64,000 nt of DNA from a virus, in the IMG/VR virus record IMGVR_UViG_3300045988_065173, positions 13,917 to 77,916 of that record; one strand, given 5' to 3'. The notes beneath the pieces were generated by a model, which did not search any database, was not told where the DNA came from, and was given only the letters and a program-made list of their open reading frames with translations. Position numbers and translations under genes: made by a program. This document shows, piece by piece, positions 28,419-28,979 of the stretch; positions within the stretch are counted from its first letter, which is position 1; the number at the start of each line of letters is the position of its first letter.

Positions 28419-28979
28419 ATGAAAAGAACTATTGAAATTGAATGTCCAGATGGCTACAAGCCTATCTACAATGCCAAAACAGGTAATGTTGAAATTGTTC
28501 CAGAGAATATTATGGGACGAATAAAGACCTATGAGGACGCTAGAGACTATCTTGGATATGTCATTAGAGATGCGGTTAGCTATAATGAATCCGTAAATTC
28601 TCTAGCTAAGTTGCAAATAATTCTGAATGCGTTGAACGAAAAGCACAAGTTCAATCTATTAACTGGAACTGTATGGTATCCTTGGGTTCGGTTCTTTAGA
28701 ATGAAATCGGTGCCGAAAGATGCAGAGGTCATTGGACACTTCCGTTATCAGGGCGAGAAATTCGCGTTGGTGGGCGGCTTTGCGAATTATGGTGGCCGTG
28801 CGGGTCTTGGCTCTTTCTCTTCTAGCCTTGGCGTCGGCGATGCCACTTCCAATGTTGGGATGCTTGCGTGCAAATCTGAAGAGATTGCTAGATATGTATC
28901 AATCCAGTTTGGAAAACTAGTGTTTGAGGCTTGTTTTGCGAGACATTTTGAGGGTAAAGAATTTGAATGGCTTGACTGA
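28419..28979 (+). CDS. small protein carrying the remote DGR variable repeat (DGR target 2)
   Basis: Residues LVGGFANYGGRAGLGSFSSSLGVGDATSNVGML are encoded by VR2. It shares the N-terminal family with 27843-28307. Confidence 0.65.
   Translation: MKRTIEIECPDGYKPIYNAKTGNVEIVPENIMGRIKTYEDARDYLGYVIRDAVSYNESVNSLAKLQIILNALNEKHKFNLLTGTVWYPWVRFFRMKSVPKDAEVIGHFRYQGEKFALVGGFANYGGRAGLGSFSSSLGVGDATSNVGMLACKSEEIARYVSIQFGKLVFEACFARHFEGKEFEWLD
28768..28859 (+). repeat. DGR variable repeat VR2 (remote, ~26 kb from TR)
   Basis: ~83% identical to the TR. All 17 mismatches are at TR adenines. It is in frame with the AAT/AAC codons of the TR. Confidence 0.75.

Follow-up and report, generated by a model that had tools for sequence, protein, structure and literature searches.

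A second, remote and very probably active target of a single diversity-generating retroelement in a recoded, probably crAss-like phage

Introduction

The diversity-generating retroelements (DGRs) of phages are regarded as devices for switching tropism, directed at receptor-binding tail proteins. The experimental prototype is that of the Bordetella phage BPP-1, with brt, the template repeat (TR) and the variable repeat (VR) of mtd. A phage DGR with a distal, apparently non-structural second target was reported for Quimbyvirus ('Quimbyviridae'; Benler et al. 2021, PMC8008677). [quoted passage not shown] The crAss-like surveys and the large metagenomic DGR catalogues look only near the reverse transcriptase (RT) gene, and the largest of these catalogues (Roux et al.) states that remote targets are missed.

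The locus analysed here resembles in layout the DGR of Quimbyvirus, a phage of gut Bacteroidetes. Both phages have one VR within the structural module and another, distal VR on the other strand, where it is part of an apparently non-structural gene surrounded by genes for nucleases, tRNA repair and counter-defence. Quimbyvirus is myovirus-like with a genome of ~75 kb, whereas the phage examined here is probably crAss-like with ~190 kb, and the second target of Quimbyvirus was reported as a CLec protein, whereas none was detectable here by sequence or by predicted structure. The initial annotation of this DNA called a DGR acting in trans on a small early-block protein alongside the tail fibre atypical, which is a fair description, but a precedent exists in Quimbyvirus (PMC8008677).

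Results

Genome context and the DGR cassette

The window, i.e. the whole 64-kb stretch of DNA analysed, is part of a large phage genome. The minus-strand block, from position 1 to ~15.3 kb, encodes the large terminase (TerL), the portal and fibre-like proteins, and is readable only with TAG as a sense codon, as it holds 125 in-frame TAGs in 4325 codons. The plus strand from ~24 kb carries at least 20 tRNA genes and small ORFs, with all genes in the standard code, as well as PD-(D/E)XK nucleases, a protein with the cyclic-phosphodiesterase (CPD) domain of tRNA ligase, an SPFH protein, a nicotinamide phosphoribosyltransferase (NAMPT) and replicative helicases. The TerL and portal genes, the amber recoding, the tRNA-CTA and the 185-193 kb of related contigs would be compatible with a place among the Zeta crAss-like phages (Crassvirales), whose genomes of 145-192 kb are organised in blocks and frequently recoded, and the organisation is as described in PMC12386605.

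The DGR cassette lies at the low end of the minus-strand, late block (Table 1). The TR sits between target gene 1, which is itself within the block of fibre, portal and TerL genes, and the RT gene, which follows the TR at a distance of 140 nt. The RT has the GNYLSQ (GxxxSQ) motif and the YADD catalytic motif. Translation of the RT probably begins at a TTG codon (MKRVGYLHE...). In the hallmark motif GxxxSQ, the Q is encoded by an in-frame TAG, which directly supports the reading of TAG as Gln, and because of the in-frame TAGs, DGR finders using the standard code would truncate the RT at codon 37. When TAG was read as Gln, the VR of target gene 1 was located at the extreme C-terminus of the protein. 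An Avd gene was not detected: target gene 1, the TR and the RT follow one another with no intervening ORF, and the ORF downstream of the RT had no Avd match.

Table 1. Positions of the DGR components, the remote target and nearby features in the window
Feature	Position	Strand	Description
DGR RT	723..1997	-	TTG start, 424 codons, 9 in-frame TAG; Pfam RVT_1, 2e-18
TR	2138..2235	-	Single template repeat, A-rich member of the repeat family; encodes LLVGSNANNGSNAGLSYFNSNNDVSNANSNVE, 10 AAY codons
VR1	2336..2433	-	C-terminus of the tail-fibre-like target; 24 mismatches to TR, all at adenines
Target gene 1	2311..4131	-	606-aa tail-fibre-like protein, TAG-recoded, 8 in-frame TAG
Suppressor tRNA, anticodon CTA	19821..19893	-	ARAGORN; needed to translate RT and target gene 1
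Second suppressor tRNA, anticodon CTA	23289..23359	+	ARAGORN
PD-(D/E)XK_5 endonuclease	26168..26521	+	Inside the tRNA array
tRNA-Tyr	26527..26610		First copy
tRNA-Tyr	27270..27354		Second copy, 743 bp apart
64-aa ORF	27373..27567	+	Weak Tad2-like/DUF2829 match
154-aa neighbour	27843..28307	+	Partial paralog, no VR
Target gene 2	28419..28979	+	186-aa protein, phrog_11581, standard code (0 TAG)
VR2	28768..28859	+	Codons 117-147 of the 186-aa ORF; variable repeat of the remote target
159-aa protein	28979..29458	+	phrog_33832
PD-(D/E)XK_5 endonuclease	29622..30014	+	Inside the tRNA array
SPFH/Band-7 protein	31025..32983	+	652 aa; Pfam 1e-19
tRNA-ligase CPD-domain protein	34467..34874	+	Pfam 9e-8
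NAMPT	53291..54853	+	phrog_448, 2e-182

Several other genes of the plus-strand block were noted. One of the two PD-(D/E)XK_5 endonuclease genes abuts a tRNA-Tyr gene, which is duplicated; this may indicate homing-endonuclease-like mobility in the tRNA block. In the SPFH/Band-7 protein, the domain is followed by long Ala/Lys/Glu-rich, imperfect 66-nt repeats (families D3, D5 and D8). NAMPT and tRNA-ligase CPD functions are associated with countering host defences that deplete NAD and cleave tRNA. The 64-aa ORF, two genes upstream of the 154-aa paralog, matched the Thoeris anti-defence Pfam family PF11195 with an E-value of 9e-4 and 20.2 bits, under the cut-off of 25 bits.

A second variable repeat remote from the cassette

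A DGR repeat copy on the plus strand, VR2, had been proposed in the initial annotation as a second DGR target, and both the observation and its interpretation were borne out. VR2 aligned without gaps with the TR (2231->2140, minus strand) and with VR1 (2429->2338, minus strand), at a distance of 26.5 kb from the TR and on the opposite strand. The TR and VR2 were identical at 70 of 92 nt, and all of the 22 mismatches fell on the 30 adenines of the TR (22/22; probability by chance, P~6e-15). The number of mismatches given previously, 17, was therefore too low, but their restriction to TR adenines was correct. VR1 and VR2 differed from each other at 14 positions, each of them a TR-adenine position. 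When every A of the TR was masked as N and the whole window was searched with this pattern, exactly three sites were found, namely the TR, VR1 and VR2, with none expected (100 shuffles).

VR2 is in frame with the ten AAY codons of the TR and, as 39 residues follow it, is internal in the 186-aa protein, in agreement with what had been described. The gene is also, as described, a plus-strand gene in the standard code, and it lies within the tRNA/replication block. Its stop codon overlaps the start codon of the next gene (28977-28981), whose 159-aa product has a signal peptide and, at its C-terminus, transmembrane helices. This overlap suggests translational coupling in the clade of the window. 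A conserved operon of the two genes was considered and rejected, as the two genes are not adjacent in other clades.

Variation of VR2 in related phages

The 186-aa protein had 832 database homologues, the best 120 of which were 84-93% identical over the full length and came from contigs with lengths up to 193 kb. Among 102 aligned homologues, an entropy above 3 bits was observed only for columns 121, 123, 124, 127, 134, 136, 137, 141, 143 and 145, which correspond exactly to the ten AAY codons, and the rest of the protein was almost invariant. In the same set, the TAT codon of the TR gave rise only to Y, S, C or F, the AGC codon only to G or S, and the GAC codon only to G or D. The amino acids K, E, Q, M and W are the five outside the coding capacity of NNY; these were absent from the ten hypervariable columns (0 of 1020 residues) compared to 21.6% elsewhere, which is the signature of NNY codons. 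For at least 25 pairs of IMG/VR genomes, the 466 nt outside VR2 were 100% identical while VR2 itself was only 76-88% identical. A single cluster at 90% identity comprised 1393 distinct sequences, and 15 sampled members of it differed mostly in the VR. The exact allele of the window is also present in the dataset ERR321471. VR2 is thus not an invariant copy, but was hypervariable at the AAY-derived positions across more than 100 related sequences.

The transfer of information from TR to VR was assessed in 19 genomes, i.e. the window and 18 genomes from IMG/VR for which both loci were recovered. In comparison with the TR of its own genome, VR2 had 410 differences at adenines and 22 at other bases; most of the latter were contributed by three genomes that have an indel or in which the TR is partly overwritten. 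In the window, the mismatches were A-specific on realignment. Polymorphisms of the TR at bases other than A co-varied in the TR, VR1 and VR2 of each genome (T/C at four sites), and a GTA->GCA change private to the lineage of L051 was carried in all three repeats. Such non-A markers of the TR in the VRs of the same genome are the marker-transfer signature of TR-to-VR homing. Information flow from TR to VR2, adenine specificity and hypervariability in the population were therefore directly observed, and one TR feeds two VRs on opposite strands. The differences between assemblies further suggest that mutagenesis is ongoing within one population.

VR1 and VR2 had been described as independently diversified, and this was upheld at the 19 truly hypervariable nucleotide sites, where the identity of VR1 and VR2 was 0.33 within genomes versus 0.31 between genomes (permutation p 0.19). 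A common specificity of the two repeats was considered and rejected, since no significant within-genome co-variation was observed. Some VR2 alleles carried in-frame deletions of 2-4 codons (L021, contig 3300045988_050979, and the proteins P0059, P0084 and P0092, of 182-184 aa), which indicates that homing or later events occasionally alter the length of the VR.

The TR adenines fell into two classes when the TR, VR1 and VR2 of the window and of the IMG/VR loci L120-L193 were compared. The adenines of the AAY and TAT codons gave all four bases in the VRs. The adenines preceding a G (8 sites) were G in 88-98% of the 66 VR copies and otherwise A, with C or T almost never observed. These sites include three synonymous third positions (CTA->CTG, GTA->GTG and GCA->GCG), at one of which the counts were G62, A4, C0 and T0, so selection at the protein level is no explanation there. 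In other clades, an A before G was likewise changed to G (TTA->TTG, GGA->GGG). This bias might reflect either a context-dependent misincorporation by the RT or selection at the nucleotide level for G in the VRs.

Alternative explanations for VR2

From these data, we consider VR2 to be a genuine and currently active second target of the single DGR of this phage, with a probability of about 0.9. A chance similarity to the TR or an assembly chimera can be dismissed, as the masked pattern was expected nowhere by chance and the arrangement recurred in assemblies from ENA, Logan and NCBI as well as on ~40 independent contigs from IMG/VR, which measure 95-270 kb. VR2 could alternatively be the fossil of an old duplication or of a one-off homing event that is no longer diversified. 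Of the 18 positions at which both VRs differ from the TR, 14 have the same base in VR1 and VR2, and this could suggest common descent; the excess, however, is due to sites that are G in nearly all VRs, because all eight A-before-G sites were shared (8/8) but only 6 of the other 10, which is not significant. A fossil would also not account for VR2 differing among genomes that are identical across the remaining gene, nor for its tracking of the lineage-specific non-A changes of its own TR, and at the hypervariable sites VR1 and VR2 were no more alike within than between genomes. A fossil is accordingly extremely improbable.

Variable repeats might also result from positive selection together with ordinary recombination or gene conversion, whether the partners are VR1 and VR2 or co-infecting strains. 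Exchange among the repeats at the DNA level does occur, as seen from VR-like stretches in the TRs of two genomes (L041 and L047) and TR-identical stretches in VR1 of two others (L058 and L060), and VR1 and VR2 were unusually similar (0.63) in one pair (L049/L033). Such exchange, however, cannot create new bases at TR-adenine positions only (410 A compared to 22 non-A differences for VR2), and it is at odds with the complete absence, in 1020 residues, of amino acids outside NNY coding and with a remaining gene that is nearly invariant. This explanation was consequently judged very improbable as well, and active diversification of VR2 from the TR is preferred.

The four genomes with exchanged stretches suggest occasional mis-homing into the TR, or gene conversion between repeats that are 200 bp apart. 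The loss of TR adenines was located in the 3' third in L041 and at the 5' end in L047 (TRs at ~2764), and events of this kind would erode the mutagenic potential of the TR.

Recognition of the two targets

The length of repeat homology was 98 nt for VR1 and 92-94 nt for VR2. The flanks of VR1 and VR2 were unrelated, with no sequence in common beyond the repeat, and an IMH-like element 3' of VR2, for which a search had been proposed, was accordingly not found in a form common to both VRs. The sole IMH candidate is a fixed difference at the 3' end, where the VRs read GTYGGG and the TR reads GTYGAG. Hairpins with a 5-bp stem and a 4-nt loop after VR1 and VR2 were considered as a targeting element and rejected, as they folded no better than shuffled sequences (z -0.4 and -0.7); the hairpin on the VR2 side lies in coding sequence. 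As VR1 and VR2 share nothing outside the repeat, targeting appears to be homology-dependent, and recognition probably relies on the TR/VR homology of ~92 nt.

The 186-aa protein and its neighbour

The 186-aa protein matched phrog_11581, a family of uncharacterised function (E 6.8e-14; residues 25-175 against positions 37-194 of the 200 in the profile), and distant members of the family matched it too. No Pfam family was detected for this protein or for 93 family members (E<=1), the FGE-sulfatase and DUF1566 types included, and a sequence search of the PDB with the 186-aa protein gave no relative. No signal peptide was seen by eye. An AF2 model built from a diverse alignment (A2) had a pLDDT of 94.3; a model from a shallow alignment (A1; pLDDT 46.9) was discarded. 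The predicted fold is a compact, monomeric alpha/beta domain without a match to tail proteins, and in a Foldseek search of the model against the PDB nothing was obtained with an E-value below 0.3, C-type lectin DGR proteins included. Mtd, TvpA and TaqVP have a CLec fold with a C-terminal VR; the 186-aa protein, with its internal VR and judging from the predicted model, does not appear to belong with them, although it might be a strongly reduced CLec.

The initial annotation saw no obvious virion fibre in this protein, and no fibre, collagen-like or trimerisation region was recognised in it. Homology to the fibre target was considered and rejected, as the BLASTP similarity was confined to 34 residues of the VR. 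The 154-aa neighbour had been called a VR-less paralog. It does lack a VR, giving no match to the TR pattern, but the paralogy is partial: the neighbour is homologous only over residues 7-90 (hhalign against alignment A2, 98%, E 1.6e-13), i.e. over an N-terminal helical module with 'EWYxSGN...ALxAF' and 'LxIIxxLN' that is common to the neighbour and the family, and it lacks the VR-bearing half of a phrog_11581-type protein. BLASTP between the two proteins detected only a stretch of 21 aa.

Occurrence of the arrangement

In the clade of the window, the adenine-masked pattern never had more than three matches per contig. Two other clades, with RTs that were 73-76% identical and with diverged TRs, presented the same layout, a pair of VR1 and TR together with a remote VR. 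The remote VR was a single match in orthologous proteins of 186-190 aa (43-66% identical to that of the window), and was A-specific with respect to its own TR, so that the arrangement is conserved in three TR lineages. The gene order around the small target differed between the clades. One genome, IMGVR_UViG_3300045988_135603 (167 kb; loci L209, and L214 with L219), has one TR and three targets, which are the tail fibre and two paralogous proteins of ~186-195 aa, all A-specific with respect to the TR.

A profile search of 1.84 billion representatives gave 302 clusters of the family at 50% identity, mostly of 170-220 aa. A long-form subfamily with a different N-terminal module ('EKAKEWYNSGN..LKE.ALQAF') was hypervariable at the same positions of the scaffold (GG.A..GG.AGLG.F.S..GVG.A.A..GFLGCA). 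No match was obtained by megablast and tblastn against 50,697 INPHARED phage records. One member (P0272, in the cluster of P0088) is an NCBI hypothetical protein of Gemmiger formicilis (WP_370841506.1) on a 484-kb contig, which might be either a mis-binned phage contig or a hint to the host.

Discussion

By analogy with Bordetella phage BPP-1, the mechanism is probably retrohoming. The RT would copy the RNA of the TR into adenine-mutagenised cDNA, and this cDNA would then replace VR1, with which the neighbouring tail-fibre gene ends, or, in trans, VR2, 26.5 kb away on the opposite strand and inside the gene of the 186-aa protein. Homing would randomise ten NNY codons and partly vary about six more, which sit mid-protein on a Gly-rich scaffold (LVGG.A..GG.AGLG.F.S..GVG.A.S.VG).

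The translation of the RT requires TAG suppression. As the RT and the fibre are TAG-recoded, and the gene of the small protein is in the standard code within the tRNA/replication block, diversification would take place late in infection and the small protein would be expressed pre-late or independently of the code. In the next infection, the variant protein would act ahead of virion assembly or without any dependence on it.

The 186-aa protein is most likely a hypervariable binder of a polymorphic ligand of the host (or of a competitor) in the conflict between phage and host. Its codon usage, its gene neighbourhood and the lack of a signal peptide may point to an early, intracellular, counter-defence role. 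The neighbours include tRNA genes, nucleases, a tRNA-repair domain and the weak Tad2-like ORF, with NAMPT further on, and these surroundings resemble those for which a 'defence/counter-defence island' was argued in the case of the distal Quimbyvirus target. This neighbourhood is weak evidence on function, because the gene order is not conserved between clades.

Alternatively, the protein might be an active DGR target but a component of the virion, for instance an additional protein for receptor binding or fibre capping whose gene lies apart from the structural block, in which case the system would serve ordinary tropism switching. The tail fibre carries the same peptide as its VR scaffold, and two family members weakly matched the C-terminal VR region of phrog_5302, a 'tail protein' (E 1e-4 to 9e-4). 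Phage DGR targets are moreover nearly always receptor-binding proteins (PMC10743442, PMC8144416), and the known phage DGRs with two targets pair two surface-binding proteins. The gene, however, is located on the opposite strand, in the tRNA/replication block, and carries no TAG codon compared to 5.4 expected for its 186 codons at the late-gene rate of 0.029 TAG per codon (P~0.005). The lack of a recognisable fibre, collagen-like or trimerisation region, the restriction of the fibre similarity to the 34 VR residues, and the predicted compact monomeric alpha/beta fold without a tail-protein match also argue against a virion protein, which we regard as unlikely.

The preferred role as an intracellular binder can be extended, tentatively, into a broader proposal that we consider possible but still somewhat unlikely in its entirety. 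In this proposal phrog_11581 would be an unrecognised DGR scaffold, neither CLec nor Ig-like, and large crAss-like phages would use it, with standard-code (pre-late) expression, to produce small cytoplasmic 'antibody-like' binders that neutralise or sense polymorphic host factors, e.g. defence proteins. The repertoire would have been written late in the previous infection by the TAG-recoded RT.

Across at least three diverged TR lineages, a very abundant group of gut phages consistently uses its DGR to diversify, besides the tail fibre, one small protein (sometimes two) without the look of a virion component. This provides a testable case of targeted hypervariation of a probable non-structural phage function, and an uncharacterised protein family of ~300 clusters joins the list of DGR scaffolds. 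It also indicates that the inventories of DGR targets are incomplete for large, recoded phage genomes.

As in BPP-1, there is one RT and one TR, the mutagenesis is adenine-specific at AAY codons with unidirectional copying into the VR, and a tail-fibre protein that bears its VR at the C-terminus serves as primary target. [quoted passage not shown] In overall organisation, the window and its related contigs, which are 185-193 kb long, match the phages of the ctoVY1/cthgQ11/3717_85572 group. The features concerned are the genome size, tRNA and replication genes in a forward block with the virion genes and the DGR in a reverse one, the amber recoding, the CTA suppressor tRNA, amber codons inside the RT, the GxxxSQ motif and a long RT (~414 aa) without Avd. 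From these common features, the phage of the window probably belongs to this group, for which a local cassette with a tail-fibre target was described, and a remote VR in a small protein was unreported.

The tentaclins and the bacterial multi-target DGRs have in common with this system one TR with several VRs that diversify independently, and a VR that is not necessarily C-terminal. The bacterial remote targets, in contrast, are cell-surface or signalling proteins, whereas here a small phage protein that looks cytoplasmic, from an uncharacterised family, is targeted. Remote and multiple targets in bacteria, adjacent pairs of targets in phages and a distal CLec target in Quimbyviridae were therefore already known. 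New here are the phage group and the target family, which has an internal VR and, according to the predicted model, an apparent non-CLec fold. Also new are an arrangement kept across three TR lineages, with up to three targets, and the split between a recoded RT and a target in the standard code.
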